Source: Rhodospirillales bacterium
GTDB taxonomy: Bacteria > Pseudomonadota > Alphaproteobacteria > Rhodospirillales > CAMCUA01
Direction of reading: 5' to 3'
Length of the DNA: 52,570 nt
NCBI GenBank assembly: GCA_947470575.1
Contig: CANITX010000003.1
Coordinates: forward strand, 1-52,570
This document shows positions 6,924 through 48,965 of the stretch, piece by piece. Under the pieces are notes generated by a model. It worked only from the letters and a program-made list of their open reading frames with translations. It was not told the DNA's origin and searched no databases. A program made the translations under genes and the position numbers. Position 1 is the stretch's first letter. The number at the start of each line of letters is the position of its first letter.

Positions 6924-6927
6924 GGCT

Positions 6928-8202: not shown

Positions 8203-8433
8203 CCCACTTACCTCTTTAGAAACCGTAGATGCCCCCTTGTTCGCGCTTGAGTAGTATGCCGCATACGAAGGGGCGTTCCGCTACCAAACGCAAAATTCGA
8301 TAACAGTCGAATTCCTTAGTTTGATGATCGCATTTTTGTCCCTGGAACCTGAACGCTCCCTGAACGGTTGTTTAGACCTCGTTAACCTGTTTATCCAGGC
8401 GGCTGCCATGGATGAAAAGGCGGAATTCAGCCG

Positions 8434-8775: not shown

Positions 8776-8788
8776 GACTGTCTTCACC

Positions 8789-9130
8789 TCAGGGCAGGTC
8801 GAGCCGCACGACGGCGGCGGCATTGGCGATCACTGTCGAACCGGTACCCGCCGCATTGCGGATTTCCAGGCCGCCCTCCATGACGCGCACGGTACCGGTG
8901 CCGTGCGGCAGCACCGCCAGCACCGCGTCCTTGTCCACCTGGTCGGGTTTGGGCACGCCGATGAAGACCTCGACCTGCATGTCGTCGACGGACAATCCCA
9001 GGGCCGGTCCGACCGACAGCGAATTGTGCCAAAGGGCATCGCGCAAGGCGCGCACCGCCGCCTTGGTGTAATCGGTGCCCCGGATATCGGTGCCCATGCC
9101 GATTTCGGTCACCACGCGTTTCAAGGTCAT
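8789..9130 (-). CDS. Lin0512 family protein
   Basis: EIGMGTDIRGTDYTKAAVRALRDALWHNSL and VLPHG...GGL motifs. Confidence 0.88.
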   Translation of the reverse strand: MTLKRVVTEIGMGTDIRGTDYTKAAVRALRDALWHNSLSVGPALGLSVDDMQVEVFIGVPKPDQVDKDAVLAVLPHGTGTVRVMEGGLEIRNAAGTGSTVIANAAAVVRLDLP

Positions 9131-14629: not shown

Positions 14630-14764
14630 GACTTCTGGCGGCGGCTCAATAGGATCGGCGGGGCTGCGCGAAAGCTCTGGTTTTTACCACTGGCGGGTTT
14701 AGGCTGGCGTCAGCCGCGGGGGCGTTGGCCCTTGCGCGGGAATTACAGAAACGAGGAGGCCGTC

Positions 14765-15727
14765 ATGTCCGATTTCCCAAAGAAGATCGTCATCGATGAA
14801 GAAGGTCCGCGCGAAGGCTTTCAGATCGAAAAGACGCCGATTCCCACCAAGCGTAAGATCGAGTTGATCGACGCGCTTTCGGAGTCCGGCGTCAAGCACA
14901 TGCAGATCGTCTCCTTCGTCAATCCGAAGCGGGTGCCCGGTTGGGCCGATGCCGACGACGTGGTCAAAGGCTTCAAATATCATCCGGACATTCACTACAC
15001 GCCCCTGTGGCTGAATCCGAAAGGCTTCGAACGGGCATTGCAATATCGCGACAAGCTGACGTTGTTGGGCGGCATAAAGCTCGGCGGCTCGGAAAAATTC
15101 ATGATCCGCAATCAGAACACCGACGACGCACAGAACATCAAGATGCAGGACGAGCAGGTGAAGCAGTTCATCGCCAGCGGCATCCCGGTGCACAGCGTTG
15201 CCGTCGTCGCCGCCTTCGGCTGCAATTTCCAGGGCGATATCCCGGTCAGCCGGGTGTTGCAGGTGGTGCGCCAGGGCTTCGACATCGCCAAGGCGAACGG
15301 CGTCGATCTGCACCAGATCCGGCTGGCCGACACCATGGCCTGGGCAACCCCGGACCGTATCAAGAAGGTCGTCGGCGCCGTGCGCGACCAATACCCGGAC
15401 AAGGAAATTCACCTGCATCTGCACGATACTCGCGGCATGGCCATTGCCAACGCCTACGCCGGTCTCGAAATGGGGGTGGCCAGCTACGACACCGCCGTGG
15501 CGGGCTTGGGCGGTTGCCCCTTCGCCGGACATGCCGGGGCGGCGGGCAACATCTGCACCGAAGACCTGGTATTCCTGTGCGAGGAAATGGGTATCGAGAC
15601 CGGCATCGATCTAGAAAAGCTGATCGAAGTGGCACGCCTTGCCGAAGACATCATGGGCCGTTCGCTGCCCGGTTCGGTGATGCACGGCGGCACCCTGTCG
15701 CGCTTCCGTCAGGCGGCCGCTCACTGA
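14765..15727 (+). CDS. HMG-CoA lyase-like DRE-TIM metallolyase (tandem paralog)
   Basis: Same motif set; GAGGAGG RBS before ATG 14765. Confidence 0.88.
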   Translation: MSDFPKKIVIDEEGPREGFQIEKTPIPTKRKIELIDALSESGVKHMQIVSFVNPKRVPGWADADDVVKGFKYHPDIHYTPLWLNPKGFERALQYRDKLTLLGGIKLGGSEKFMIRNQNTDDAQNIKMQDEQVKQFIASGIPVHSVAVVAAFGCNFQGDIPVSRVLQVVRQGFDIAKANGVDLHQIRLADTMAWATPDRIKKVVGAVRDQYPDKEIHLHLHDTRGMAIANAYAGLEMGVASYDTAVAGLGGCPFAGHAGAAGNICTEDLVFLCEEMGIETGIDLEKLIEVARLAEDIMGRSLPGSVMHGGTLSRFRQAAAH

Positions 15728-15788: not shown

Positions 15789-17696
15789 TCAAGCGATAAC
15801 CCCTCGCTGACGCAGCGCCTCAAGGATGACGTCCGACGCCTCCTCTGCCGACACCTTGACGGTAGCGATGACGATCTCCGGATTTTCCGGCGTCTCGTAG
15901 GGTGAATCGATGCCGGTGAAGTTCTTCAGCAAGCCGCTGCGCGCCCGCTTGTAGAGGCCCTTCACGTCGCGTTCCTCGGCGACCTCGATGGGCGTGTCGA
16001 CGAAGATTTCCAAGAACTCGTCGGCTTCCATCAGCTCGCGCGCCATGCGCCGTTCCGAACGGAATGGCGAAATGAACGATACCAGCGTGATCAAGCCGGC
16101 ATCGACCATCAGGCGCGAAACTTCGGCGACGCGCCGGATGTTCTCAACCCGGTCGGTGTCGGTGAAGCCAAGGTCGCGGTTCAGACCGTGGCGGACGTTG
16201 TCGCCGTCCAGCAGGTAGGTATGCCGGCCCATGGCCACCAGTTTCTTCTCGACGATGTTGGCGATGGTCGATTTCCCCGAGCCCGACAGGCCGGTGAACC
16301 ACAACACCACCGGCTTTTGGCCCTTGAGATCGGCACGCGCTCCTTTGTTCACGTCCAGCGCTTGCCAGTGAATATTGTGGGCGCGCCGCAGCGAGAAATC
16401 GATCAAGCCCATGCCGACCGTGTTGTTGGTCATCCGGTCGATCAGGATGAAGCCGCCGGTGTCGCGGTTCTCCTCGTAAGGGTCGAAGGCGATGGTGCGG
16501 TCGAGCGAGATATTGCAGACCCCGATTTCGTTCAGGTGCAGCGTCCGTCCGGCCAGGTGCTGATGCGTATTCACGTCGATGATGTATTTCGGCGCGGCGA
16601 CAGTCGCCTGCGCCGTGCTCCCGCCGATCTTCATCAGATAGGCACGCCCTGCCAGCATCTCGTTTTCGTGCATCCATAGGATGCGCGTCTGGAACTGATC
16701 GGCGATCGGCGCCGGATCGCGCGACGCGCAAATCACGTCGCCGCGCGAAATGTCGATTTCGTCCGCCAGCGTCAGCGTCACCGCCTGCGCAGCCACCGCC
16801 TCCGGCAGGTCGCCATCGTAGGTGACGATACGGCTGACCGTGCTTTCCCGGCCGGAGGGCAGAACCTTGATCCTCTCGCCGGGCTTGATCGTGCCGCCGG
16901 CGATGGTGCCGGCGAAGCCGCGGAAGCTATGGTCCGGCCGGTTGACCCATTGCACCGGCATGCGGAACGGCCGCGAAGGCAGATCGTCTTCGACCTCGAC
17001 CGTCTCCAGATGGGCCATCAGCGTCGGGCCCTGGTACCAGGGTGTATGGGCGCTGGCCTCGACGATGTTGTCGCCGCGCAGCGCCGATACCGGGATCGCC
17101 AGGATGCGGCCGATATCGATGCCGCGCTGCTTGGCGAAGTCGCGGTAATCCGCGACGATCTCGTCGAAGCGGTCCTGGGAATAGCCGACCAGGTCCATTT
17201 TGTTGACGGCCAGCACGATGTTCTTCACGCCCAGCATGTGAACGATGAAGCTGTGCCGCCGGGTCTGTGTCAGCACGCCCTTGCGCGCGTCGATCATCAG
17301 CACGGCTAGGCTGGCGGTCGAGGCACCGGTCGCCATGTTGCGGGTGTATTGCTCGTGGCCCGGTGTGTCGGCGACGATGAACTTGCGCTTGTCGGTGGAA
17401 AAAAACACATAGGCGACATCGATCGTGATGCCCTGTTCGCGTTCGGCCGCCAATCCGTCGACCAGCAGTGCGAAGTCGAGCTCGCCGCCTTGGGTGCCGA
17501 TCCGCTTCGAGTCGGCCTCCAGCGTCGTCATATGGTCTTCATAGATCAGTTTGGATTCATAGAGCAGGCGGCCGATCAGGGTCGACTTTCCGTCGTCGAC
17601 CGAACCGCAGGTGATGAAACGCAACAGCGACTTGTGCTGGTGCGACTCCAGGTAGGCATCGATGTCCTTGCCGATCAGGTCGGACGTATGGGCCAT
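15789..17696 (-). CDS. cysNC: Bifunctional sulfate adenylyltransferase large subunit / APS kinase (CysN-CysC, NodQ-like)
   Basis: [27 protein letters not shown] and NKMD, followed by [12 protein letters not shown] and [13 protein letters not shown] at 17696 overlaps the cysD stop. Confidence 0.96.
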
Positions 17697-18598
17697 CAGA
17701 AATACCCTTCCTGCTTCTTCTTCTCCATCGATGCCGTGGCGTCGTGGTCGATCACCCGGCCCTGGCGCTCCGACGATGTGGTCAGCAGCATTTCCTGGAT
17801 GATCTGCGGTAGGGTCGTGGCCTCGGATTCGATGGCGCCGGTCAGCGGGTAACAGCCCAGCGTGCGGAAGCGGACCATCTTCTGCATCGGCGTTTCGCCG
17901 GGGCGCATCGGCATGCGGTCGTCGTCGACCATGATCAGCACGCCGTCGCGTTCCACCACCGGGCGGCGCGCGGCGAAGTAGAGCGGCACGATGGGGATGC
18001 CTTCCAAATAGATGTATTGCCAGATGTCCAGCTCCGTCCAGTTGGACAGCGGGAAGACGCGGATCGATTCGCCCTTGTTGGTCCGCGTGTTGTAGATGCG
18101 CCAAAGTTCCGGGCGCTGGTTCTTCGGGTCCCAGCGATGCTGGGCCGAGCGGAAGGAAAACACCCGCTCCTTGGCGCGCGACTTTTCCTCGTCGCGGCGC
18201 GCCCCGCCGAAGGCGGTGTCGAAGCCGTATTTTTCCAGGGCCTGCTTCAACGCCTGGGTTTTCATGATGTCCGTATGGACGGCCGAGCCGTGGGTGAACG
18301 GCCCGATTCCGTTGGCGACGCCCTCCGGGTTGGTGTGGACGATCAGTTCCAGGCCGTTCTTGCGCACCGTCTCGTCGCGGAACCGGATCATGTCTTGGAA
18401 CTTCCAGGTGGTGTCGACATGCATCAGCGGAAACGGTGGGCGGGCCGGGTAAAAGGCCTTCATCGCCAGGTGCAGCATGACGGCCGAATCCTTGCCGATG
18501 CTGTAGAGCATCACCGGGTGTTGGCATTCGGCGACCACTTCGCGGAAGATGTGAATGCTTTCGGCCTCGAGCCGCTGCAAATGCGTCAAAGGTTCCAT
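17696..18598 (-). CDS. cysD: Sulfate adenylyltransferase small subunit
   Basis: [37 protein letters not shown] and [10 protein letters not shown] motifs. Confidence 0.97.
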
Positions 18599-18860: not shown

Positions 18861-19694
18861 ATGCAGATCACCAAGATATCGGACCATATCGGCGCGGAAG
18901 TCACCGGCATCGACCTGAGCCGGCCCATCGACGAAGCGACCCGCAAGCGGCTGGAGGCGGCGTTGGTCGAACATGTCGCCCTGGTCATCCGCGATCAGGA
19001 TTTCACGCCGCCTCAGTTCCTTGGCGCCGTGAGCCTGTTCGGCGAACCGATGGAGCAGCACTTCACCGAAGATCAGGTTCCCGGATGTCCACTGGTCAAT
19101 ACCGTATCGAACCGCAAGGCCGGCATGGTCGACTATACAAAGAAGCGCGGCGCCGGCTGGCACACTGACCACACCAACCACCGTCTGCCGCCGAAGTTTA
19201 CCTCGCTTTACATGGTCTCGATGCCCAAGGAAGGCGGTAATACCGCGGTGTGCAATACCCGCGCCGGCTATGCCGCCCTGCCTGAGGATTTCAAAAAGCG
19301 GCTGCAAGGCCTGAAGACCAATAACGTTTTCATGGGTAGTGCGGTCAAGGTCGCCGGCGGCGCGTCCATCGAGGCGCAGAAGAAGCTCAAACCCGAACCC
19401 GTGCTGCAGCCGCTGATCCGCACCAACCCCGACAACGGTACCCAGGCGCTCTACTTCCACCCGTCCAAGACCGAGAACATCGTCGGCATGACGCCGGAAG
19501 CCAGCCAAGAGATGATCGACGATCTGTTGGCCCGTTCCCTCAAGCCCGAATACATCTATAGCCACAAATGGCGAAAGGGCGACATGCTGATTTGGGACAA
19601 CCGGGCCTCCCTGCATCGTGGCGAGGCAGTGGCCGATCCTAATCAATTGCGTCTGCTCTACCGGGTCATCGTTCGCGGCGAACTGCCGTACTGA
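18861..19694 (+). CDS. TauD/TfdA family dioxygenase, divergent from cysD
   Basis: IGAEVTGIDL, WHTDHTN and WDNRASLH; GGGAG RBS. Confidence 0.92.
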   Translation: MQITKISDHIGAEVTGIDLSRPIDEATRKRLEAALVEHVALVIRDQDFTPPQFLGAVSLFGEPMEQHFTEDQVPGCPLVNTVSNRKAGMVDYTKKRGAGWHTDHTNHRLPPKFTSLYMVSMPKEGGNTAVCNTRAGYAALPEDFKKRLQGLKTNNVFMGSAVKVAGGASIEAQKKLKPEPVLQPLIRTNPDNGTQALYFHPSKTENIVGMTPEASQEMIDDLLARSLKPEYIYSHKWRKGDMLIWDNRASLHRGEAVADPNQLRLLYRVIVRGELPY

Positions 19695-21279: not shown

Positions 21280-22146
21280 ATGCAGACGAATTCCGCCAAG
21301 AAAGCCGTCGATTTCCATAAGCTGGTCGGCGATTTCCGCCTCAGCGATACGTCAGGTCACCGCGTTTCTCGGATGCTGCTGACCGGCAAGGAAGGCGCGC
21401 CCAACAACTACAAGATGGGCCTGGGCGGCGGTGGCGAGAGCGAGGATTGGACGACGCCGCGCCATCGCCACACCTTCGAGCAGTTCCGCTATCCGCTGTC
21501 CGGCGAATATGTCATCCGCAAGGACGAAGTGCTGCCCGCCGGCTGGGTCGCCTATTTCCCCGAGTCCGTCTACTACGGCCCGCAGATCAAACGCGGCGAT
21601 CTGCTGATGCTGTCGCTGCAGTTCGGCGGGCCGAGCGGCCTTGGTTATTGGAGCGCGGCCGAACGCAAGAAGGCCACCGAGCGCCTGTTGGCCAAGGGCG
21701 GCAAGTTCGACGACGGCGTCTATACCTGGACCGACGATAAAGGCCGGCGCCACAACCAGGATGCCTCCGAGGCAGTCGAGGCGGAAGCCCGTGGCCACGA
21801 TGTGGACTACCCGGAACCGCGCTACAAGGATCTGGTCATGATCAATCCGGCCGCCTTCTCCTGGATCAAGGACAAGGACGCACGGGGTGTGGCGCGCAAG
21901 AACCTGGGTTCGTTCACGGAACGCGACGCCCGCTTCGGCTTTGTCCAAATGGAGAAGGGCGCCACCCTGCAGTTCGGCACGGAACGTGCGCCGGAAGTGC
22001 TGTATCTCAAGGAAGGCGTCCTCGCCCACGATAACAGCACCTATGATGCCCAGTCCGCCTTCGGCACCGAGGCCGACGAAAAGCCGGTTTCGCTGACTGC
22101 CGTCGAGCCTTCCGAACTGGTCTATATGAAGCTGCCGACGTTCTGA
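21280..22146 (+). CDS. Uncharacterised cupin-like protein, paralog 1
   Basis: PRHRHTFEQ (cupin motif 1) and GWVAYFPESVYYGPQ (motif 2-like); AGGAG RBS. Confidence 0.8.
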   Translation: MQTNSAKKAVDFHKLVGDFRLSDTSGHRVSRMLLTGKEGAPNNYKMGLGGGGESEDWTTPRHRHTFEQFRYPLSGEYVIRKDEVLPAGWVAYFPESVYYGPQIKRGDLLMLSLQFGGPSGLGYWSAAERKKATERLLAKGGKFDDGVYTWTDDKGRRHNQDASEAVEAEARGHDVDYPEPRYKDLVMINPAAFSWIKDKDARGVARKNLGSFTERDARFGFVQMEKGATLQFGTERAPEVLYLKEGVLAHDNSTYDAQSAFGTEADEKPVSLTAVEPSELVYMKLPTF

Positions 22147-22195
22147 TCGGCGGCGCGGCAAAGGCCTAAGAAACACGTTCCAGGGAGAGACCGAC

Positions 22196-23053
22196 ATGCA
22201 GATCAGCAACAAAAGCGAAGCGCAGGATTACTTCAAGGTCGTTGGGGATTTCCGCTCCTCCGGCAAGCGCAACTCCAGCATGTTGCTGACCGGCAAGGAC
22301 GGTGCGCCCGACAATTACAAGCTGGGCTTGAGCGGCGGCGGCAATCCTGAAGACTGGACTTCGCCGCGCCACCGCCACACCTTCGAACAGTTCCGTCACC
22401 CCATCTCCGGTGACTATGCCATCAAGAAGGATGAGGTTTTACCCGCCGGCTGGGTCGCCTATTTTCCGGAATCGGCCTATTACGGCCCGCAGGTGAAAAG
22501 CGGCAATCTACAGATGATGTCGTTGCAGTTCGGCGGGCCCAGCGGCCTTGGCTATTGGAACATGTACAGGTGCAAGGAGGCCTTCGACCGGCTGGTCGCC
22601 AAGGGCGGCAAGTTCGAAAACGGCATCTACACCTGGCTCGACGATAACGGAAAGCGCCACAATCAGGACGCCTCCGAAGCGGTCGAGGAAGAGGCGCGCG
22701 GCCACCCGGTCGAATATCCGGAGGCCCGCTACAGCGACATTGTCATCATGAATCCGGCGGCCTTTAGCTGGATCAAGGACCGCGAACATACCGGCGTGGC
22801 GCGCAAGCATTTGGGCACTTTCACCGAACGCGACGCGCGCATCGGCTTCGTCCGTCTGGAAAAGGGTGCGACGCTGCCGTTCGGCACCGAGCCGTCGGCT
22901 GAAATCGTCTTCCTCAAGGAAGGCCGCATCAGCCATGACAACAGCACCTACGCCGCGCATACCGCCTTCGGCACGGAGGCCGACGAAAAGCCCGTCGGCC
23001 TGACCGCGGTCGAACCCTCCGAATTGGTTTATATGAAGCTGCCGACGTTCTGA
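22196..23053 (+). CDS. Uncharacterised cupin-like protein, paralog 2
   Basis: Colinear with paralog 1 down to the C-terminal YMKLPTF; GGGAG RBS. Confidence 0.8.
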   Translation: MQISNKSEAQDYFKVVGDFRSSGKRNSSMLLTGKDGAPDNYKLGLSGGGNPEDWTSPRHRHTFEQFRHPISGDYAIKKDEVLPAGWVAYFPESAYYGPQVKSGNLQMMSLQFGGPSGLGYWNMYRCKEAFDRLVAKGGKFENGIYTWLDDNGKRHNQDASEAVEEEARGHPVEYPEARYSDIVIMNPAAFSWIKDREHTGVARKHLGTFTERDARIGFVRLEKGATLPFGTEPSAEIVFLKEGRISHDNSTYAAHTAFGTEADEKPVGLTAVEPSELVYMKLPTF

Positions 23054-23067
23054 AAGGAACCGCCGCC

Positions 23068-23595
23068 ATGGCTACCGTCGTCAATACCGCGCAACGTGCT
23101 CAAGAGCTTGCCGATCCGGCCGCGAAAGAGTCCCTGCACAAAGAAGCCGAGACCCGCGTGCAGCCGTTCTATTTCAAGCCGCCGGAAGAACGGCCGAAGG
23201 ACGCCAAGACTTACTACAACTTGGCTAAGTCCGACCTGGTCGGCGCCCAGATACAGATCGTGCCGCAAGGCGGGGCGAACAACCTGCATTACCACACCGG
23301 CGAGGACGGTTTCTGGATGGTGCTGCAAGGTCGGGCGCGGTTTTACGATTCCAACGGCCCGACCGGCGAATACGGACGATTGGAAGGCGTGCTGATGCCG
23401 CGCAACGCCCGCTATTGGTTCGAGGCGGTGGATTGCGGCGAGGAATTGCACCTTCTGCACATTTCCGGCCGTCAGCCGCGCGACAACCGGCGCGTCGACC
23501 TGGAGGCGAAGACCGCGCAGTTCGGGCGGTCCATGCACGTCGACCTGCTGCCCGATGGCGAGCAGAAGATCACCCGTCGGAATTCGGAGGGCTGA
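23068..23595 (+). CDS. Cupin domain protein
   Basis: GGANNLHYHTGEDGFWMVLQG and GVLMPRNARYWF; AAGGA RBS. Confidence 0.82.
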   Translation: MATVVNTAQRAQELADPAAKESLHKEAETRVQPFYFKPPEERPKDAKTYYNLAKSDLVGAQIQIVPQGGANNLHYHTGEDGFWMVLQGRARFYDSNGPTGEYGRLEGVLMPRNARYWFEAVDCGEELHLLHISGRQPRDNRRVDLEAKTAQFGRSMHVDLLPDGEQKITRRNSEG

Positions 23596-23658
23596 TCGGT
23601 TAAGGGCCGCTCCACATCCCATGCCGTTGAAAAGTTCTCGCGTGTAGGAGACATCGCC

Positions 23659-24525
23659 ATGCAAGCCGGTTCCGCCAGCGCATTGAAGGACGGCCCTGCC
23701 TACCACGATAAGGTTGGCAATCTACGCACGGGGACGCGCAATACCAGTACGCTATTGTTGGGGAAGGAAGGCGCGCCCAACAATTACAAGGCCAACTTCG
23801 GCGGCGGTGAGGACAGCGGCAGCGGCGATTGGATCGCGCCCCGCCATCGCCACACTTTCGAGCAGGTCCGTCATCCGTTGTCCGGCGACTACACCATCGG
23901 CACCGATCAGGTTCTGCCCGCCGGCTGGGTCGCTTATTTTCCCGAGTCCGTGTACTACGGCCCGCAGGTCAAAAGCGGCAATCTGGTGATGTTCTCCTTG
24001 CAGTTCGGCGGCACCAGCGGCCAGGGCTATTGGAGCATGCGCCAGCGTAAGGAGGCCTATCAGGCTTTGGCCGCCAAAGGCACCTTCCACGACGGGGTCT
24101 ATACCTGGATCGACGACAAGGGCGTTCGCCATAACCAGGATTCTGCCGAAGCTGTGTTCGAGCAGGCGCTCGGGCGCAAGACCGAATATCCACCGGCCCG
24201 CTACAAGGACCTGGTGATGATGAACCCGGCCGCGTTCAGTTGGCGCAAGGACAAGGACCAGCCCGGCGTTGCTCGCAAGCATTTGGGCATCTTCACCGAA
24301 CGCCTGATCAAGGTCGCCATGATTCAGGTCGACAAGGGCGCGATGCTGACCTTCGGCGCCGAGCCGGCGCCCGAGGTGCTATTCCTAAAGGAAGGCGTCA
24401 TGACCCACGACAACACCAGCTACGATAAGCATTCCGCGTTCAGCACCGAGACCGACGACGCCCCGGTATCCTTGCGCGCCGTCGAGCCTTGCGAGCTTCT
24501 GTACATCAAGACGCCGACGTTCTGA
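23659..24525 (+). CDS. Uncharacterised cupin-like protein, paralog 3
   Basis: PRHRHTFEQ, YFPESVYYGPQ and C-terminal YIKTPTF; AGGAG RBS. Confidence 0.8.
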   Translation: MQAGSASALKDGPAYHDKVGNLRTGTRNTSTLLLGKEGAPNNYKANFGGGEDSGSGDWIAPRHRHTFEQVRHPLSGDYTIGTDQVLPAGWVAYFPESVYYGPQVKSGNLVMFSLQFGGTSGQGYWSMRQRKEAYQALAAKGTFHDGVYTWIDDKGVRHNQDSAEAVFEQALGRKTEYPPARYKDLVMMNPAAFSWRKDKDQPGVARKHLGIFTERLIKVAMIQVDKGAMLTFGAEPAPEVLFLKEGVMTHDNTSYDKHSAFSTETDDAPVSLRAVEPCELLYIKTPTF

Positions 24526-35270: not shown

Positions 35271-36284
35271 ATGACCGACATCTACCGCCAGCGCATCGAC
35301 CATCCCGCCGCCTGGACCAGCCGGGCCATTGGCGGCAAGGAAGGGCTGATGCTGCGTCTCGCGCCCAAGCATCTGGCCGGCTTCGATGCGATCCTGGCCA
35401 AGACCCGCCACCTCAAGCCGCAGGAAGTGACCCGGCGGGAATTCGATCATCCCGACGTCAATCCGCTGCTGGCCGAGGTATTGCGCATCGTCCAGGACGG
35501 CCGCGGTGCGGTGATCGTCGCCGGCATCGAACACGCCCGCTATTCCGAAGAAGAGTTCGAACGCATCTACTGGGGCTTCGGCACCCATTGGGGCGAAGCG
35601 GCGACGCAAAGCGCCTTCGGCGACCGGTTGGGCCGCGTCACCCACGTTCCGGTCGGCCCCGACAATCCGACCAATCGCGGTTACAAGGGCAGGGACGAAT
35701 TGTTCCTGCACACCGACAATCACGAAATCGTCGGCCTGATGTGTATCCACAAGGCGGCGAAAGGCGGCTTCAGCGTCCTCGCCAGCTCGCAGGCGATCTA
35801 CAACGAAATACTCGCCACCCGGCCCGATCTGTTGCCGGCTCTCTACGAAGGCTACCCCATGGCGACCCGCGAGGCGTCGACGAGCGCCAAGCCGGTAACC
35901 GAATATAAAGTGCCGGTCTTTTCCCTGGTCGGCGGCAAGGTCAGTTGCTTGTACAACCGCGAATTCTTCGACCGTGCCGCCAACCTGCGTGGCGACCGTC
36001 CGGCCGATTTCAGCGAAGCCATGGCGCTTTACAACGCCATCGCCGACAATCCCGACGTCCATGCCGAATTCATGTTGGAGCCGGGCGAAATGATGTTCTT
36101 CAACAACTACACCATGCTGCACGCCCGCCGCCCGTTCGAAGACGCATCCGACCGGCCGCAGCGCAGCCTGTTGCGCCTATGGGTGACGCCGCCCGAAGGC
36201 CGGCGCCGGCCGGTGATCGAGGTCTACCGCCGCAAGGCAGGCTCCTATGGCCCCGGCCCCAAGGTGCCGACAATGGCGGGATGA
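35271..36284 (+). CDS. TauD/TfdA superfamily dioxygenase (different subfamily from the other four)
   Basis: LFLHTD, GGFS, LEPGEMMFFNNYTMLHAR and RSLLRLW; AGGAG RBS. Confidence 0.9.
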   Translation: MTDIYRQRIDHPAAWTSRAIGGKEGLMLRLAPKHLAGFDAILAKTRHLKPQEVTRREFDHPDVNPLLAEVLRIVQDGRGAVIVAGIEHARYSEEEFERIYWGFGTHWGEAATQSAFGDRLGRVTHVPVGPDNPTNRGYKGRDELFLHTDNHEIVGLMCIHKAAKGGFSVLASSQAIYNEILATRPDLLPALYEGYPMATREASTSAKPVTEYKVPVFSLVGGKVSCLYNREFFDRAANLRGDRPADFSEAMALYNAIADNPDVHAEFMLEPGEMMFFNNYTMLHARRPFEDASDRPQRSLLRLWVTPPEGRRRPVIEVYRRKAGSYGPGPKVPTMAG

Positions 36285-37028: not shown

Positions 37029-37898
37029 TCAGAACGGCTTATCGCCGCGCACCAACGTGCGATAGAGCATCCGGTGCTGATTGGGGTCGTAATCGAAGCC
37101 GGCCTTGTGCAGGGCCGAGCGGTTGTCCCAGATCAGCATGTCGCCCAGCTTCCACTGGTGGACATAGGTGAACTCCGGCTTCACCAGATGGGTGTAGGTA
37201 AGATCGCGCAGGAATTCCTGCGATTCCTCGGGGCTCATGCCGACGATGTTCTCGGTCTTGTTCGGGTGGAACCATACCGCCTTGCTGCCGTTCACCGGAT
37301 GGGTGCGCACCAGCGGATGGATCGGCGAGGGCGCCTTGTAGTTCTTCTGGTCTTCCAGGGTGTCGGGGTTGCGGTTCTTCGTCGCGCTGCCGGCCAGCAG
37401 GTTCACCGTCTTCATGCCGGTGATCTTCCTTTTCAAATCCTCCGGCAGCGCCTCGTAAGCCGCGCGCGTGTTGCAGAGCGAGGTTCCGCCGCCCCGGTCC
37501 GGCAGTTCCACCGGGTAGAGCGAGGTGTAATTCGGCGGCAACACCTGGTTGGTGTGGTCGGTATGCCATGAAGAGCTTTGCGCCGTCTTCGCCTGGCTGC
37601 CCTGGCTGTTCTTGAAGCGGTTCGACAGCACGCTGACCAGCGGCACGCCCTCGGCCAGATAGCGCCGGTTCTGGTCTTCCATGACCTCGCCGAACAGGCT
37701 GACGGCGCCCAGGTATTCGGCCGGGGTGAAGGTCTGGCCGCGGATGCAAAGCGCGATGTTCTCTTCGAGTGCGTCGATCAGCTGCCGGCGGGTCGCTTCG
37801 CTAACCGGCTGGCGAAGGTCGAGGCCGCTTACCTCGACGCCGACATTGGGGGACAGCTTGTCGAACCGCAGTTTCGGTTCCTATGCGATGACATTCAT
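37029..37898 (-). pseudogene. TauD/TfdA dioxygenase gene with an in-frame TAG at codon 6
   Basis: AGGAG RBS, then ATG AAT GTC ATC GCA TAG GAA CCG AAA CTG CGG TTC..., continuing in frame through LSPNVGVEVSGLDL, WHTDHTN and WDNRSALH. Confidence 0.75.
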
Positions 37899-40689: not shown

Positions 40690-41955
40690 ATGCGCCCCGC
40701 GCCGTCGCCTGCCGTCTCGCCGCTCGACGAGGTCTATCGACAGGTGCGCGCCGCCAGCCTCGAACTGGCGTCAGGCCTTAGCGACGCCGACGCCACCGTG
40801 CAGTCGATGGACGATGCCAGCCCGGCGAAATGGCATCTGGCGCATACCACCTGGTTTTTCGAAACTTTCGTTCTTTCGCCGGACGCGCCCGGCTACCGGC
40901 TCTTCGATGAACGCTTCGGATTCCTATTCAACTCCTATTACGAAGCGGTCGGCGAACGTCACCCGCGACCGCGCCGCGGCCTGCTGACACGCCCGACGCT
41001 GGAACAGGTGCGGGCCTACCGCGACCATGTGGATACGGCGATGGCGGCCTACCTGCCGATGGCCGGCGACGCCCAACGCCAATTGATCGAACTCGGCCTG
41101 CATCACGAACAACAGCATCAGGAACTGTTGCTCACCGACATCCTGCACCTGTTCGCGCAAAACCCGTTGCGCCCCGCCTTCCGTCCGCCGGAGCCGCGGG
41201 CGGTCGATGCAGGTGGCGTCACGGTCGGCGGCTGGGCCAGCTTCGCCGGCGGGTTGATCGCCATCGGCCACGACGGCGACGGCTTCGCCTTCGACTGCGA
41301 AGGGCCGCGCCATCGGGTGTTCCAGCAGCCATACCGGTTGGGGGCGTGCCCCGTCACCAACGCCGATTGGCTGGCCTTCATGGACGACGGCGGCTACGCC
41401 ACGCCGACGCTCTGGCTGTCCGACGGTTGGGAGGCGGTACGCCGCAACGGCTGGTCGGGGCCGCTCTATTGGGAACGACGCGGCGATACGTGGTGGAGCA
41501 TGACGCTGCGCGGCCTGCAGCCCGTCGATCCTGCCCAGCCGGTCTGTCATATTTCCTATTTCGAAGCCGATGCCTTCGCCCGTTGGGTCGGCAGTCGGCT
41601 GCCGACCGAAGCCGAATGGGAGCATGCCGCTGCGCCCCGCCCCGTCGCCGGCAACTTCGCCGGCAGCGGCCGATTATGTCCCGCACCGGTTAGGCCCGGT
41701 GACGCCGATGCGCCTGCCGGCCTGTTCGGCGATGTCTGGGAATGGACGCAAAGTCCTTACGTCGGCTATCCCGGCTTCGTCCCGTCTCCCGGCGCCGTTG
41801 GCGAATACAACGGCAAGTTCATGAACGGACAGTACGTGCTGCGCGGCGGCTCGTGCGTGACGCCCGATGGTCATATCAGGGCCAGCTACCGCAATTTCTT
41901 CCAACCCGATAAACGCTGGCAGTTCTCCGGCCTGCGATTGGCAAAGGACGCCTGA
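40690..41955 (+). CDS. egtB: Ergothioneine biosynthesis sulfoxide synthase
   Basis: [37 protein letters not shown] and YRNFF motifs. Confidence 0.95.
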
Positions 41956-42938
41956 TGCCCGCTGCCTTCGACGTGCCTTACGATTCGGCCGCCATGGCTG
42001 ACAGCGTACCGACCCCCGGCGTCTCGGAATTCGAACGTTCCGTGAAAGCCGGCCTTTCCGCCCGGATCAAGACGCTCGACAGCAAGTATTTCTACGACAG
42101 CGCCGGTTCGGCCCTGTTCGATCGCATCTGCGAGCTTGCGGAATACTACCCGACGCGCACCGAAACCACGATCCTGCGCCGTTGCGCTCCGGCCATCGCC
42201 CTGGCAGCGGGCCGCGGCGCCGAACTGGTCGAACTCGGCAGCGGCTCCAGCGTTAAGACCCGTATCCTGCTCTCCGCTCTCGACCGTCCCGCCGCCTATG
42301 TGCCGGTCGATATCAGCAGCGATCACATGCTGGGCGCTTTGCATTCCTTGCGCGCGCATTTCCCGGGGCTCGACATCCGTCCCGTCTCGGCCGATTTCAC
42401 CGAGCCGTTTGTCTTGCCGGTCCGGCGTGGCGAGGGTGTCCGCTTGCTGTTTTTCCCGGGCTCGACCATCGGCAATCTGCATCCCGCCGATGCGGAAAGC
42501 TTTCTGCGGCGCCTGCGCCGGGATTTTTCGCCCCAGGCCATGGTGATCGGCGTCGATTTGAAGAAGGACGAAGGGCTGCTACACGCCGCCTACGACGATG
42601 CCCTTGGCGTTACCGCCGCCTTTAACCTGAATATTTTGGAGCGTATCGGCCGCGAGCTGGATGCCGAAGTGCGGCCAGCATGCTTCCGCCATGAAGCCCG
42701 CTATGTCAGGGCGCTCGGGCGCATCGAAATGCACCTGGTCTGCACCGAAGACCACATGGCCCGCGTCGGCGACATGCCCATCCGATTCCACCGGGGCGAA
42801 TCCATCCATACCGAGAATTCTTACAAATATACGCTGACCGAATTCACCACGCTCGCCGAACGCGCCGGATGGCATTCCAGCGCGGCTTGGACGGACGAGG
42901 ACGGATTGTTCTCGATCCACCTGCTGGCTGCAGGTTGA
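41955..42938 (+). CDS. egtD: L-histidine N-alpha-methyltransferase
   Basis: KYFYD, EYYPTRTE, ELGSGSSVKT, FPGSTIGN, AYDD..GVTAAFN and IHTENSYKY motifs. Confidence 0.96.
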   Translation: MPAAFDVPYDSAAMADSVPTPGVSEFERSVKAGLSARIKTLDSKYFYDSAGSALFDRICELAEYYPTRTETTILRRCAPAIALAAGRGAELVELGSGSSVKTRILLSALDRPAAYVPVDISSDHMLGALHSLRAHFPGLDIRPVSADFTEPFVLPVRRGEGVRLLFFPGSTIGNLHPADAESFLRRLRRDFSPQAMVIGVDLKKDEGLLHAAYDDALGVTAAFNLNILERIGRELDAEVRPACFRHEARYVRALGRIEMHLVCTEDHMARVGDMPIRFHRGESIHTENSYKYTLTEFTTLAERAGWHSSAAWTDEDGLFSIHLLAAG

Positions 42939-43041: not shown

Positions 43042-45432
43042 ATGTTTCCGAATCCAAGCTACCCGCCGCTTCCCGAACATATCGGCCAGCATGCACGAAA
43101 CCGCCCGCTTCAGCCTGCTGTCGTTTGCGGTGAGCGCACGATCGCCTACGGGGAACTCGATGTATTGATGCGTCGCGGGGCGGCTGGCTTGCGGGCGGCA
43201 GGAGCGAAGTCCGGCGACCGGATCATGGTGGCGGCCGCCGATAAGGTCGATCTGTTGCTGGGCGTTCTTTCGGCCATGGCGGCGGGCATGCCGGTCATGC
43301 CGGTATCCGGGCGCGAGGAAGATGTCGGCCGGGTGGCGGCGGCATTTCGGCCCCGGCTGGTTGTCGTCGGATCGTCTACTGCGGGCGGCGCTCCCGACTT
43401 GGGGGATACGCCGCACCGTTTCCTCGCCGACCTATTGGCCGCCGAGCCAGGCGAATTGGCTCATGTGTCCCACGCCGACATCGGTCTGCTGATCCTGACC
43501 TCGGGAACGACCGGCGGCGAACGGCGCGGCACATTGCTGTCGCATCGGGCGCTATCGGGAACGGCCCAGTACATCAACGAACGCATGGGTGTCGACGACA
43601 CCGTGCGCGACCTCGTGACCTCGCCGTTGGAACACGGCTTCGGCATGGGGCGGACACGCTGCGCACTGCATCTCGGCGGCACCATCGTGCTGCAGTCCGG
43701 CCTGTTCACGCCGGCTTCGGCGGCCGAGACCCTGCGCGTCAAGGACTGCAACATGCTGTCGATGTCGGTCCCGGTGTTGAGCCTGCTGCTCGATACCGAG
43801 GCCCAGGCGTTGGGTGCGCTCGCCGGGCGCATCCGGTGGATCGAAATCGGCAGCAGCCATCTCAAGCCGGATCGTCGGCGGAAACTTTTGACCTTGCTGC
43901 CGCGGACCCGCTGCTTCGTCAGCTACGGCCTGACCGAGGCTATTCGTTCGACCTTCATCGAGCTCAATGCCGAACCGGCAAAGATCGATACGGTCGGCCT
44001 GCCGACGCCTTGGGTGCGGGTACGCGTCGTCGACGAAAATGACGTCGATGTGGCACCAGGCACGATCGGGCGTATCCAGGTCGACGGGGTCAACAAGGCA
44101 TCGGGCTATTACGGCTACGACGCAGCCTGGCAACGCAAGCTGCACGGCGACTGGCTGGACACCGGCGACCTCGGCACCATGGATGCCGATGGCTATCTCA
44201 GCTTTATCGGGCGCGTCGACGATACCATCAACGTTGGCGGTCTGAAGGTGGCGCCGGAAGAGGTGGAGGAGGCCTTGGTTCCGCTGTTGGCGGATACGCC
44301 CTTCGCCGTCGCGGCGGTATCCGACCCGGCGGGAATCGAAGGCTTCGTGCCCGCCCTCTTCGTCGAAGCCGATGTGGCCGAAGCGATTGGCCTCGATCGG
44401 GTGCGCGACCACCTGCGCAACCGGTTACCGGCCTTCAAGATTCCCCGTGTTGTCTACGCCGTACCCGTCTTTCCCCGTACCGCCGTCACCGGCAAGGTCC
44501 GCCGTGCCGCGCTCAGCGAGATCGCGGCTGCCAAAGAGGCGGCGCGCATCTTGTGGCCTCGTCGCCTGATGGCTGCGTTGGCCGAAGCCGGAGAACCGGC
44601 CTGGCCTACCTTCGAGGGGCGCTCCGTGCTATCGCGACGCCGGCTGTCGGAGCTGCTGGTGGGCGACGATGGCGTAGCGCTGCCAAGCGATCCCGTTCTT
44701 GTCCGTGCCGTGACCGCGCTATGCGCGGCAGCGCTCTCCGACGATCTCGATGTGGGCCGCGCCGCCGGCGATGCCCGGTCTTGGCTTCCCGCCGGGCGCG
44801 GTTCCGTGTTGGCCATCGGCAGTGTCGATCTCGATGACACGGCGGTCCTCGGGGCCCTGCTGCATGTACTGGTCGCTGGGGGCCGGTGTCTCTTGCTGGC
44901 ATCGCGCGCCGCACCCCTCATCGCCGAGGATCTCGGCTGGATCGCCCGTGGCCGAGCGCGCCATGTTTTGCTCGATGCCGGCCGCTTTGCCCGGCTGGCG
45001 GCGGCGGAGGCGCATCTAAGGGACGCTTTCGCCTATCCGGAATTCGAACAGGTGGTCATCGTCGGGTCTCAGCCCGATCCGGCGGCGATTGCCCGCTTTC
45101 ACGATGCTTTTGGCTTCATGCCCCGCCATCTGACTCGCCGCGATGGGGTCTGGTCGACGCGCGTGCTCGAACCGGCACCGCCGACTGCCGATGCGCAAGC
45201 CATTTGGTTGCGTCTGCGCGAAATCGCCGCGACGGTATTCCGATGCGCCGTCGACGATCTGGGGCCCGACGCATCGGCGGAAAATACCAAGGGGTGGGAT
45301 TCGCTCGGCTTCATCAATCTGATCCTGGAGATCGAAACCGCCTTCCAGCGGCAATTGACGCCCACTGCCATCATGACCATCGGCAGATTGGGCGATGTTG
45401 TGAAGTTGTTGGAGACCGAGACGCCGCGATAG
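43042..45432 (+). CDS. Adenylate-forming enzyme fused to a degenerate second adenylation-like segment and a C-terminal acyl carrier domain
   Basis: TSGTTG, SYGLTEA, TGDLG, GRVDDTINVGG and TGKVRR; C-terminal GWDSLGFINLILEIETAF phosphopantetheine site. Confidence 0.88.
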   Translation: MFPNPSYPPLPEHIGQHARNRPLQPAVVCGERTIAYGELDVLMRRGAAGLRAAGAKSGDRIMVAAADKVDLLLGVLSAMAAGMPVMPVSGREEDVGRVAAAFRPRLVVVGSSTAGGAPDLGDTPHRFLADLLAAEPGELAHVSHADIGLLILTSGTTGGERRGTLLSHRALSGTAQYINERMGVDDTVRDLVTSPLEHGFGMGRTRCALHLGGTIVLQSGLFTPASAAETLRVKDCNMLSMSVPVLSLLLDTEAQALGALAGRIRWIEIGSSHLKPDRRRKLLTLLPRTRCFVSYGLTEAIRSTFIELNAEPAKIDTVGLPTPWVRVRVVDENDVDVAPGTIGRIQVDGVNKASGYYGYDAAWQRKLHGDWLDTGDLGTMDADGYLSFIGRVDDTINVGGLKVAPEEVEEALVPLLADTPFAVAAVSDPAGIEGFVPALFVEADVAEAIGLDRVRDHLRNRLPAFKIPRVVYAVPVFPRTAVTGKVRRAALSEIAAAKEAARILWPRRLMAALAEAGEPAWPTFEGRSVLSRRRLSELLVGDDGVALPSDPVLVRAVTALCAAALSDDLDVGRAAGDARSWLPAGRGSVLAIGSVDLDDTAVLGALLHVLVAGGRCLLLASRAAPLIAEDLGWIARGRARHVLLDAGRFARLAAAEAHLRDAFAYPEFEQVVIVGSQPDPAAIARFHDAFGFMPRHLTRRDGVWSTRVLEPAPPTADAQAIWLRLREIAATVFRCAVDDLGPDASAENTKGWDSLGFINLILEIETAFQRQLTPTAIMTIGRLGDVVKLLETETPR

Positions 45433-45473
45433 TCCCTGCAGGGGCCATGGCAAAGGGGTAGTGAAGGCCGGAT

Positions 45474-46628
45474 ATGTCCTACGTATCGCTCGCATGGCTC
45501 ACTGTGATGGTAGCAACGTTCAGCCTGTACTGGCTGACGCCGGAGCCTTGGCGGCGGGGGACCCTGGTGGCCGTCACCGCCGTCTTTCTTGCTTACATGG
45601 CGCCTGTTTCGGCCGTCATTCTCGTGGGCTTCACGGCTGTTACCTGTCTGATCGCCCGCCAGCCGCACCCGGCTGGATGGGTGGTGGCGACCGTCACCGT
45701 TGGCTTCATCGCCATTCTGAGTGTCTTCAAATTCGGGGCACGTGGCGCATCCTACGAGACGATCCTCAGAGAAGGCCTGATTCCCATGGGCCTGTCTTAC
45801 TATACCTTCCGTTGCCTGCACTTGATCTACGAACGCCATCGCGGCAACTTCGCCGAAACGCGCTCGGCCGAGATCGTCGCGTATCTGTTTTTCTTGCCGA
45901 CCCTGGTCGTCGGCCCGATCCATCGCTTTGGCGCTTTTCAACGCGACTTTTACCGCGTGCGGCTCGATCTGACGCTGCTCGGCGAGGGGTTGGAACGCAT
46001 CCTCTACGGCTACGTCAAAATCGCCTTCATCGGCAACTACCTGATCGGCGGCCGGCTCGGCGATTGGATGCACGGCATCCAGTCGGAGCATCCTTCGCTC
46101 TACGCCTACCTCTGGATCGTGCAGGGCGGCTGCAATCTCTATTTCCAATTCTCCGGTTTCGCCGACGTTGCCATCGGCTTTGCACGGCTGCTGGGCTTTC
46201 GGGTGATCGAAAACTTCAATTGGCCGTACTTCAGCAAAAACCTGTCGGAATTCTGGCAGCGCTGGCACATCTCGCTGACCAGTTGGTGCCGCGATTACGT
46301 CTACGGTGCCGTCGTCTCGGTGACGCGTAGTCCGGCGCTTGGCGCCATCGCGACCTTGCTGGTCATTGGCCTGTGGCACGAACTGTCGCTGCGCTTCATC
46401 TGCTGGGGCCTGTTCCACGGTTTCGGTCTGATCGTCTGGCAGCGCTTCCAGATCGTGAAGCGCCGCCTGCCTGCTGTCGTCTGGCCGCCGGCGCAGGCGG
46501 CGCTCGCCGTGCTATCGACGCTGTTGACGGTGCATTACACTTGGTTTGCCTTCGCCATCGTGCGCAAGCCCGATCTTGCCGGCGTGTTGAGTGTCTGGGG
46601 TGCCGCCACGATAGGATTCTTCCAGTGA
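45474..46628 (+). CDS. MBOAT family O-acyltransferase (DltB/AlgI-like)
   Basis: PMGLSYYTF, GPIHR, YFQFSGFAD, ENFNWPY, EFWQRWHISL and GLWH (catalytic His). Confidence 0.93.
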   Translation: MSYVSLAWLTVMVATFSLYWLTPEPWRRGTLVAVTAVFLAYMAPVSAVILVGFTAVTCLIARQPHPAGWVVATVTVGFIAILSVFKFGARGASYETILREGLIPMGLSYYTFRCLHLIYERHRGNFAETRSAEIVAYLFFLPTLVVGPIHRFGAFQRDFYRVRLDLTLLGEGLERILYGYVKIAFIGNYLIGGRLGDWMHGIQSEHPSLYAYLWIVQGGCNLYFQFSGFADVAIGFARLLGFRVIENFNWPYFSKNLSEFWQRWHISLTSWCRDYVYGAVVSVTRSPALGAIATLLVIGLWHELSLRFICWGLFHGFGLIVWQRFQIVKRRLPAVVWPPAQAALAVLSTLLTVHYTWFAFAIVRKPDLAGVLSVWGAATIGFFQ

Positions 46629-46636
46629 GGGATGCC

Positions 46637-46774
46637 ATGTACCGCCTGTTGCACCGCCATCTGCCGCAACCGTATGCCGTCGCCGTGTCCGCGTTGTGGT
46701 ACGTGGGTCTATTGGCGCTGGCGGCCTATGGCGCCTTCGAACCGCAGGCGGAATTCCAGTATCTGGTGATGTAG
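46637..46774 (+). CDS. 45-aa single-TM DltX-like acyl-shuttle peptide
   Basis: ATG 8 nt after the MBOAT stop with GAGG upstream; MYRLLHRHLPQPYAVAVSALWYVGLLALAAYGAFEPQAEFQYLVM has one TM helix and ends in FQYLVM. Confidence 0.72.
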   Translation: MYRLLHRHLPQPYAVAVSALWYVGLLALAAYGAFEPQAEFQYLVM

Positions 46775-46781
46775 CGGCGCC

Positions 46782-47996
46782 TCAGCGGGCGGCGTTGCAA
46801 CCCTTGCCGCGTTCGGCGATCAGCCGCGCGACGGCGGTATTGGCCGCCAGGCCGTCGCCGACGATGGCGCCCAAGATCGCGCTGCCGGCAGCGGTCGTGT
46901 GGACCGTATCGGCATAGTAGTTCGGTCTGGCTGGCATCCGTTCGACGGTGGCGATGAACGGTGCGGCGTGCGCCGCCGCGGCTTCGCGCAGCCGGGCGTT
47001 ATAGGAATAGAAAGCCTCGGTGACGTCGCCGGTGTAGGCTTGGGGAACGTAGACGGCCCGGGTCGCCGTGCCGGCCAGATTCGTTGCGCCGGCAAGGGCC
47101 AGTTGCTCGTCGGCCGATTGCTCTCGGCGCAGCCATGGCGCCTTCTCGACCACGACGGGCAGCACCCCCTGCTCCTTGGTTGTTGCCAACAGGTGGCCGG
47201 CTTCGGAACCGACGTCGGCCAGCATGACCGGCAGATCGATCCGTTTGGCAAGGTCGCGGCGGCCGGCGATGCGCAGCAGCTGCTCGGCTTCCATGTTTTT
47301 CTCCACCGTCCGCCACAGGTGGGAATGCTTGGCCAACCAGCTCGGCCGGTATTCGCCGTCGCCCAGGTTCAGGTGCCGGCGCGCCATGGAAAAAATGTCG
47401 TTGAGCATGACGACGGCGATGTCGGGGGCATATGGCTGCGTATCCTCGACGAAGCGGCTTTCCACGGCGCGGGTGATGTCGCCGAGCACGCCGGCATTGA
47501 CGAAGTCGAAGCGGCAGCGGGGATAGGCCGCGCCGAGTCGCGCCATGGCAACGGCCGGCCAGGTTTCGTTGTCGTGTGTCACAAAGAGGTCAAACGTTCC
47601 TGAAGCGCCCAGAAAGGCGATGCGGACGGTACCCTCGGGCTTGGGTATGGCCACGGCCTTGCCGCGAAAGCCTTGGTCGCTGAATTGAATGCGGCCGAGA
47701 ACCGCGTTGGGTCGCGGCCGACGGCGCTCGCCGACGGACTCCCAGACGTTTCGGTTGACGACGGACTCGACCGCCGGTCCCTGGCTGCCGAAGCGATAGT
47801 ATTGTTCGGCGCGCAGCGCGATCTCACCGGCCGCGAAGACCATGCATAGCGCCGCCGGCGCCGCCAATCCGATGAACACGTCCCGCTGCCACGGTGGCAG
47901 AGCCGCCAACCGCCGCCACAGTCTGGCGAAGACCGACGGACGGGCCGCTGCTGCCGACGTTGCGGTTGACGTCGCGGGGTTCTCGAAGGTGAACAT
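46782..47996 (-). CDS. Membrane-anchored SGNH/GDSL family protein
   Basis: N-terminal TM helix; blocks FLGASGT, NAGVLG, MLND and DTVH. Confidence 0.85.
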   Translation of the reverse strand: MFTFENPATSTATSAAAARPSVFARLWRRLAALPPWQRDVFIGLAAPAALCMVFAAGEIALRAEQYYRFGSQGPAVESVVNRNVWESVGERRRPRPNAVLGRIQFSDQGFRGKAVAIPKPEGTVRIAFLGASGTFDLFVTHDNETWPAVAMARLGAAYPRCRFDFVNAGVLGDITRAVESRFVEDTQPYAPDIAVVMLNDIFSMARRHLNLGDGEYRPSWLAKHSHLWRTVEKNMEAEQLLRIAGRRDLAKRIDLPVMLADVGSEAGHLLATTKEQGVLPVVVEKAPWLRREQSADEQLALAGATNLAGTATRAVYVPQAYTGDVTEAFYSYNARLREAAAAHAAPFIATVERMPARPNYYADTVHTTAAGSAILGAIVGDGLAANTAVARLIAERGKGCNAAR

Positions 47997-48092: not shown

Positions 48093-48965
48093 TCAGTGGG
48101 GCCGTTCGCCCTTGATCAGCGTGCGATACAGGCGCCGCTCCTGGGTCGTGTCCAGCGGATCGTAATCGTAGTTGGCCTTGTGCAGGGCGGAGCGGTTGTC
48201 CCAGATCAGCACATCGCCCAGCGACCACTGGTGGTTATAGATGTACTGCGGCTTCAGCGCGTGTTCGACCAGCTCGTCCAGCAGCTTGTGCGATTCGACC
48301 GGCGTCATGCCGACGATGTTCTCGACCCGGCCGGGGTGGAAATAGATCGCCTTCTTGCCGGTATCGGGATTGGTGCGCACCAGCGGATGGATCACCGGCT
48401 CCGGGTTGGCCGCCTTCTGCCAGGCCAGCCGGTCGGAATTGACGTTCTTCGAGGCGCTGCCGGCGATGACGTTGACCGTCTGCATGGCGTCGATGCGCTT
48501 CTTCGTCGCTTCCGGCAACGCGTCGTAGGCGGCGCGCATGTTGGCGATGCCCGTCGATCCGCCGCCGGTCTCGAACAGCTTGACGGCGTAAAGCATCGTG
48601 TACTTGGGCGGGAATTCGTGGTTGGCGTGATCGGTGTGCCAGCGCGGACCGGTATAGTTGACCGTGCCGTCCTTGTTGCGGTGATGGCTGGAGATGATGT
48701 GCACCTGCGGCAGGTCCGGCAACGAATGGGTCGAATAGTCGCGCGCCTGCGGTTCGCCGAACAGGCAGGCGGCGTCGTAGAACTGCCGCGGGCCATCGAA
48801 CGTCTGATCCTTGATGACCAGCGCGATGTTCTGAACCAGGGCTTCGTTCAGCCGGCGCTTGGTTTCCGCGTCCACCGGCTTGGACAGGTCGACGCCTCTC
48901 ACCTCGGCGCCGATGTGCTCCGAAATCTTGCGGACCTTCATGGAATCTTGGGTTCGAATTTGCAT
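48093..48965 (-). CDS. TauD/TfdA family dioxygenase
   Basis: IGAEVRGVDL, WHTDHAN and WDNRSALH; GGGAG RBS before ATG 48965. Confidence 0.92.
   Translation of the reverse strand: MQIRTQDSMKVRKISEHIGAEVRGVDLSKPVDAETKRRLNEALVQNIALVIKDQTFDGPRQFYDAACLFGEPQARDYSTHSLPDLPQVHIISSHHRNKDGTVNYTGPRWHTDHANHEFPPKYTMLYAVKLFETGGGSTGIANMRAAYDALPEATKKRIDAMQTVNVIAGSASKNVNSDRLAWQKAANPEPVIHPLVRTNPDTGKKAIYFHPGRVENIVGMTPVESHKLLDELVEHALKPQYIYNHQWSLGDVLIWDNRSALHKANYDYDPLDTTQERRLYRTLIKGERPH

Follow-up and report, generated by a model that had tools for sequence, protein, structure and literature searches.

A stretch of 52,570 nucleotides (nt) from a Rhodospirillales bacterium (contig CANITX010000003.1, hereafter the window) harbours, in a diderm host, a Dlt-style cassette that is real, conserved and apparently new to the literature; it belongs to a sub-lineage in which the loading module has probably been exchanged. 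Four genes make up the cassette: a 796-amino acid (aa) fusion of an adenylation domain, a likely relic segment and an acyl carrier protein (A-ACP; 43042–45432, + strand), recognized by its Pfam domains; a short membrane-bound O-acyltransferase of 384 aa (MBOAT; 45474–46628, +; PF03062); a microprotein of 45 aa with a single transmembrane (TM) segment (46637–46774, +), supported by codon statistics, conservation and a profile; and a membrane-anchored SGNH protein of 404 aa (46782–47996, −), identified by its GDSL_2 match and its fold. A first-pass annotation, made from the letters of this DNA, had listed the fusion, the MBOAT, a 45-aa TM peptide with a terminal tyrosine and the anchored SGNH protein, and all four genes proved to be real at these coordinates. 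Its picture of a contiguous system was retained in part: the genes adjoin, with intergenic gaps of 41, 8 and 7 nt. However, the SGNH gene is encoded on the opposite (minus) strand, so that it meets the other three tail-to-tail; 7 nt separate its stop from that of the microprotein gene. The cassette is therefore not a single four-gene operon.

The ‘probable Gram-negative host’ of the same annotation is borne out by the presence of LpxC, a diderm marker, in the genome (E 8e-105). An AcpS-family phosphopantetheinyl transferase is encoded in the same genome. No TagF-family gene (PF04464) was found in the source genome, which is 91.7% complete, in a search whose control was positive in 3 of 14 cases and in which LtaS was not included. 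The closest named relatives of the MBOAT are from Magnetospira (61–62% identity) and Sedimenticola (59%), which makes a proteobacterial host likely. The synteny search proposed at first pass found the same gene set even in relatives whose MBOATs are only about 40% identical, so the grouping is more than chance. Long-flank loci, defined by at least 3.5 kb of upstream and 2.5 kb of downstream sequence, number 22 in the family; an SGNH gene and an adenylation gene are present in 22/22 and a fused A-ACP in 21/22. Two of the observations on which the annotation had made its proposal depend thus did not refute it, since the SGNH gene accompanies the MBOAT in all these loci and the peptide is conserved, its Tyr42 being found in 50 of 50 aligned microproteins.

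The microprotein displays one hydrophobic segment (aa 14–32) and ends in FQYLVM, so that Tyr42 (46760–46762) sits in a terminal FxYxxx motif; Phe40 is kept in at least 90% of the aligned sequences. The G+C content at third codon positions of its frame is 0.80, and substitutions relative to two homologues favour third positions (23 vs 11 and 12, and 22 vs 14 and 10, respectively). An alternative 45-aa open reading frame (ORF; 46632–46769) was rejected, with a codon score of −8.2 compared to 17.9 for 46637–46774. The window microprotein has no Pfam or NCBIfam family match, and the peptide profile gave one match among the 77,819 frames of the source genome.

To describe how microproteins and MBOAT tails are distributed, we counted both over 158 loci, including 8 with less than 200 nt downstream. 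Where at least 200 nt of downstream sequence are present, 77 of 81 tail-less MBOATs are followed by a microprotein (the rule identified 72 and the profile a further 5); 5/8 loci with less downstream sequence also show one. No microprotein follows any of the 69 MBOATs ending in FxYxxF. A motif-blind search, using length and hydrophobicity only, recovered, directly after nearly every short relative, a TM peptide that is about 45 aa long and has the FxYxxx ending; the hydrophobic ORFs it retrieved after five long MBOATs have no such ending. Tyr at position −4 and Phe at position −6 are common to microproteins and fused tails. As read from the sequences, the microprotein would be the missing tail of the MBOAT supplied in trans, and it is predicted to act as an acyl shuttle.

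The MBOAT itself (PF03062, E 8e-19) has the length of DltB, carries no fused FxYxxF tail and shows the key residues His302 and His265. His302 aligns with the WH motif of DltB, and H302 and E303 are invariant in 50/50 aligned MBOATs. The MBOAT profile aligns to the DltB structure 6BUG (E 1.9e-45) and ends at the same helix. In a midpoint-rooted tree of 59 sequences, with one DltB included, the family MBOATs form their own clade (support 0.94, or 0.98 including L005), apart from the fused MBOATs and the single DltB. The window MBOAT nests inside this clade and, at 27.9% identity to Bacillus cereus DltB, lies outside the branch of the latter. The WH motif reads WHE in 61 of 77 short MBOATs, compared to WHG in DltB and fused MBOATs. 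The three other MBOATs of the source genome are 464–524 aa long and all end in FxYxxF. On its contig C68 (8633–11524, −), a fused-tail MBOAT precedes a 431-aa gene and an ACP that stands alone, and adjoins a radical S-adenosylmethionine (SAM)-like gene and a 658-aa gene (labels assigned by eye); this MBOAT, despite its fused tail, is possibly fed by a carrier.

Two split MBOATs from Opitutales group with the fused MBOATs (support 0.90), which suggests that the C-terminal tail was split off more than once. The microproteins of these two loci (L074, peptide ending at 8376, and L044, ending at 5080) end in PFIYxxF like the fused tails, and probably represent an independent split.

The A-ACP protein contains an AMP-binding domain at aa 16–357 (E 5.7e-43), an AMP-binding_C match at aa 407–481 that remains below the Pfam cut-off, and a PP-binding domain at aa 724–790 (E 9.8e-7; PF00550, 29.4 bits against a cut-off of 20.8). 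The start of the 796-aa form is supported by three homologues which begin alike (P0123, P0124 and L085); the protein database lists a 735-aa form instead. While both domains of the ‘adenylation-ACP fusion’ named at first pass are present, this label overlooked an insert of about 215 aa, and the protein has three parts. An intact adenylation domain (aa 1–500; 43042–44541, +) with P-loop, A5, A7, A8 and A10 Lys motifs is followed by the insert (44542–45201, +) and by the ACP domain (45211–45411, +), whose predicted phosphopantetheine attachment site is Ser754 (45301–45303). This serine is invariant in 7/7 aligned lineage members, which are 39–76% identical to the window protein over the alignment. 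The activating domain was correctly described at first pass as acyl-CoA-ligase-like, and it is not DltA-like: its pocket carries Gly where DltA has Asp, together with conserved Glu and Arg/Lys, and Gly or a small residue occupies the DltA Asp column in 6/6 lineage members. In nonribosomal peptide synthetases, the Asp of this column binds the amino group of the substrate. The pocket would thus suit a non-amino polar acid, and our guess, based on the Gly and on the conserved Glu and Arg/Lys, is a polar carboxylic (hydroxy- or di-) acid.

The usual loading set of the family is different, consisting of a free-standing adenylation enzyme (A1) and an A2-ACP fusion. A2 is intact in 38/38 members examined, with an HxxDG-type pocket motif in 33. 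A1 and A2 together form one clade (support 1.0) that excludes the adenylation domain of the window, which with five relatives forms a clade of its own (support 1.0). On the A2 profile the window domain reaches 160 bits, and on the free-standing one 210; true members reach 643 and 511, and other ligases encoded in the source genome exceed the window domain, with up to 176 and 230, respectively. With top scores of only this height, neither A1 nor A2 was found elsewhere in the source genome.

The insert provides a second line of evidence. Its aa 600–692 match the core of A2 (hhalign probability 90.8%, E 1.2e-6, 92 columns), compared to 29.8% with the free-standing set and 0.1% and 0.3% with SGNH and MBOAT controls. 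It lacks P-loop and A7/A10 motifs, and is conserved among the 7 aligned homologues. It is also rare: 5 matches at E ≤ 0.001, of which 3 at E ≤ 1e-10, were obtained among 1.84 billion proteins, and at least one of the two weak matches is spurious. The insert is likely a decayed relic of the ancestral adenylation domain A2. Since the adenylation domain falls outside the A1/A2 clade, the insert matches A2 and the MBOAT nests within the family, the loading module has probably been swapped in this lineage. A foreign adenylation domain, neither A1 nor A2, would have been fused in front of A2-ACP and A2 would have decayed to the relic; A1 is not found, and the MBOAT, the microprotein and the SGNH protein would have been retained. 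With the loading module exchanged, the cargo has probably changed too.

The SGNH protein matches GDSL_2 (33.3 bits against a cut-off of 32.9). It has an N-terminal TM segment at aa 41–59 and a catalytic Ser132-Asp363-His366 triad, and its model (predicted local distance difference test score 88.6) adopts an SGNH fold. The window protein showed no sequence match to one DltD and no DltD Pfam match; DltD is not among the 50 fold matches listed for it, which does not exclude a DltD. In the family, the SGNH gene is on the same strand as the rest of the cassette in 30 and on the opposite strand in 21 of the 51 loci with SGNH. One relative (G030) has exactly the four genes of the window, all co-directional, and another (L087) keeps the tail-to-tail SGNH gene behind different upstream genes.

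Beyond this core, gene content is variable. Two adenylation genes occur in 14/22 and a sulfotransferase gene in 6/22 long-flank loci. The best structure matches of one such sulfotransferase (L001) are 4GBM (E 5e-15) and 4GOX (E 1e-14); the family sulfotransferase was not found in the source genome with one protein query and a profile. Radical SAM/SPASM proteins are fused to or found beside the cassette in L137 (2843–3772), L141, L143 (2472–5147) and L145 (9258–10040), and a pyridoxal phosphate-dependent decarboxylase in L112, L113 and L116. The spread of the family is patchy, with 4/401 genomes of the class and 4/401 of the order (the source genome counted each time), and its named members include Nitrosomonas, Maricaulis, Shewanella, Magnetospira, Sedimenticola, Roseitalea, Roseobacter and Sulfitobacter. 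A distant member (L170) on a plasmid of Sulfitobacter pontiacus S1704 (NZ_CP049347.1) consists of a hexapeptide acetyltransferase, an A-ACP, an SGNH-like protein and an MBOAT between transposases; a TM microprotein at 6029–6199, after the short MBOAT, was left unannotated in this record, the one annotated record examined. Shewanella waksmanii is likewise a distant carrier of the cassette.

Taken together, these features point to an acyl relay, which we consider probable, with steps inferred from the precedents of Dlt and PatA/PatB as given in PMC12148441. The adenylation domain would activate an acid with ATP and load it onto the phosphopantetheine of Ser754. The carrier would then dock on the MBOAT, where His302 would transfer the acyl group to Tyr42 of the microprotein, the latter providing in trans the tail that AlgI/PatA-type MBOATs hold in cis. 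Tyr42 would finally pass the group to Ser132 of the SGNH protein, which would esterify an acceptor at the periplasmic face. The cargo, a small and probably non-amino acid, would in this way be moved from the cytoplasm across the inner membrane. Basic residues precede each TM segment, which suggests a periplasmic location for both Tyr42 and the SGNH domain. The Dlt-like relay logic of the first-pass annotation is upheld to the extent that all parts are present with intact catalytic residues; the annotation had missed the likely relic, the probable module swap and the wide family. We favour, with moderate confidence, the full reading in which this Dlt-type relay delivers its cargo to a periplasmic envelope glycan. 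In 46 long loci, the neighbours of the cassette include no recurrent gene for a glycosyltransferase, polymerase or exporter; the glycan-related genes that do occur (YfhO-like, GT2, epimerases) are each confined to one locus or two. This makes a general envelope glycan a likelier acceptor than a dedicated exopolysaccharide, and we would guess lipopolysaccharide first and peptidoglycan second.

Several observations weigh against this reading or the support given to its parts. The counting rule for microproteins includes the motif itself, and four of the 81 tail-less loci gave no peptide match (L005, L006, L025 and L165), although L006 shows a peptide-like ORF by eye. The loci are not independent, as 78 short MBOATs collapse to 69, 58 and 18 clusters at 90, 70 and 50% identity, respectively, and the SGNH profile was built from the same loci that it then counted. 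The last motif residue is Met in the window and mostly Met/Leu/Ile in the family, not Phe. The profile match between peptide and fused tail, while in register, is weak (36.9%, E 3.6e-4). The DltX Pfam model (PF12459) does not match the window peptide and matches 2/50 members (best E 3.3e-4), and the peptide profile scores −1.5 bits on one DltX. Concerning the module swap, the relic match spans 92 of about 215 aa, and the deeper placement of the window adenylation clade is poorly supported (0.05–0.23).

Other readings must be weighed on the same evidence. The lack of recurrent polymer genes in the 46 loci would also fit a relay that acylates, instead of a glycan, a lipid of the membrane, an intermediate linked to a lipid or a protein of the periplasm, and MBOATs do acylate lipids and proteins in other systems (PMC10213974); since the characterized MBOAT/SGNH pairs listed in PMC12148441 all act on envelope polymers, we regard such an acceptor as rather unlikely, yet as the most serious of the competing possibilities. 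The SGNH protein might also serve as an esterase or editor linked to the system, in the manner of Ape1 with PatAB, while the MBOAT and the microprotein acylate the acceptor directly or via another protein. Its gene is transcribed separately and convergently in the window, its nearest fold matches are mostly esterases, and two quite different SGNH types serve the family. Its block II, moreover, holds the Gly typical of hydrolases, both here and in the family consensus, so that an esterase role may be possible; PatB, like OatA, has Ser or Asn at block II according to PMC12148441, a residue not known to be required. On the other hand, this is the sole SGNH gene of the cassette, it is present in every long-flank locus, and it carries an N-terminal anchor as do PatB and DltD. 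An esterase in place of an acyltransferase is thus unlikely in our judgement.

We attach still less weight to a CoA-dependent scheme, with an acyl-CoA ligase as the adenylation domain, a vestigial relic and carrier, and an MBOAT that uses acyl-CoA like PatA. The PDB and NCBIfam matches of the adenylation domain are generic, the best NCBIfam and several of the best PDB matches being CoA ligases, and the ancestral carrier-linked domain has decayed. Nevertheless, the ACP and its serine are kept in all seven lineage members and the new adenylation domain is still fused to the ACP, which makes this scheme improbable. A true Dlt D-alanylation system, as reported in Dickeya and Pectobacterium, would be in line with the sole NCBIfam match of the MBOAT (DltB, TIGR04091) and with the dlt genes known in a few diderms (PMC5541007). 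However, this match reaches 167.3 bits against a cut-off of 375, identities are 28% to DltB and 24% to DltA with no match to the one DltD and the one DltX compared, the pocket lacks the Asp of DltA, the MBOAT belongs to a separate clade and a TagF-family gene was not found in the 91.7% complete genome. We consider D-alanylation highly improbable here.

A broader interpretation, put forward tentatively, is that envelope acylation machines with a carrier and a microprotein exist in a second, independent lineage, represented by this family, in which a fixed membrane exporter is combined with a swappable cytoplasmic mini assembly line. The head parts of this line would perhaps be one or two adenylation enzymes, a CurM-like sulfotransferase and radical SAM enzymes. 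If so, unusual acyl groups, sulfated in some members, would be hung on the Gram-negative envelope, and the window would show a swap in progress, whose conserved relic may now be a docking spacer.

The window includes further features. A polysaccharide-type cluster (231–7929, −) with two NAD-dependent sugar epimerases/dehydratases, an ABC transporter, an 859-aa fusion of a GH2-TIM-barrel and a GT2 domain and a 426-aa protein without Pfam family lies about 35 kb from the cassette; there is no evidence that it supplies the acceptor. A cysD gene and a cysN-cysC fusion (15789–18598, −), encoding ATP sulfurylase and adenosine 5′-phosphosulfate kinase, are a likely source of 3′-phosphoadenosine 5′-phosphosulfate. 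Five TauD/TfdA-like dioxygenase genes (12716–13579, 18861–19694, 35271–36284, 37029–37682 and 48093–48941; three assigned by Pfam and two by resemblance) share the contig with several solute-binding proteins. Three paralogues of about 288 aa surround a cupin gene (21280–24525, +), with one weak ChrR cupin-like match and two without Pfam family. Tandem pairs of Lin0512-family genes (8434–9130, −) and HMGL-like genes (13664–15727, +) were also found. Immediately before the cassette, and in the same orientation, lie ergothioneine genes of the egtB-egtD type (40690–42938, +); they are probably unrelated to it, since they are unlinked in G030.

No description of this family was found in full-text searches, whose coverage excludes most subscription papers, so that a bioinformatic mention may exist. 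According to PMC12148441 (2025), MBOAT/SGNH pathways other than Dlt use acyl-CoA and a fused tail, and are said to lack a carrier protein and a DltX-like microprotein. Against this view in print, the family combines both Dlt features, the carrier and the separate tyrosine microprotein, without being Dlt. If our reading is right, undescribed envelope modifications are to be predicted in diderms, and the lineage of the window would be a natural test of the tolerance of an MBOAT relay to new cargo, which bears on the engineering of polymer acylation.

The likeness to Dlt concerns all parts of the machine: an adenylation enzyme, a phosphopantetheine carrier, an anchored SGNH protein with Ser-Asp-His, a tail-less MBOAT of equal length with the same two His, and a microprotein that is separate, crosses the membrane once and has Tyr as its fourth-last residue. 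In contrast, no component scored at the level of its Dlt family. The carrier is fused here and the pocket is devoid of the amino-binding Asp, the motif of the window family ends in Met/Leu/Ile instead of the Phe of Dlt, WHE replaces the WHG of DltB, and no TagF-family polymerase was found in the source genome. Members of the family moreover carry extra enzymes, which may be another adenylation enzyme, a sulfotransferase or a protein of the radical SAM type. Compared to the acetyl-CoA MBOAT/SGNH pairs PatA/PatB, AlgI/J/X and WssH/I, in which the shuttle is fused, the shuttle is here a separate protein and the donor is probably bound to a carrier. Relative to those of the PatA/AlgI type, the MBOAT is shorter by about 90 aa, falls in another clade and is without FxYxxF on two extra helices, and the SGNH protein differs from PatB in its block II Gly. 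Finally, the CurM and olefin-synthase sulfotransferases, which act on ACP-bound hydroxyacyl groups, are the nearest solved structures to the optional sulfotransferase of the family, which is here encoded within an MBOAT cassette.

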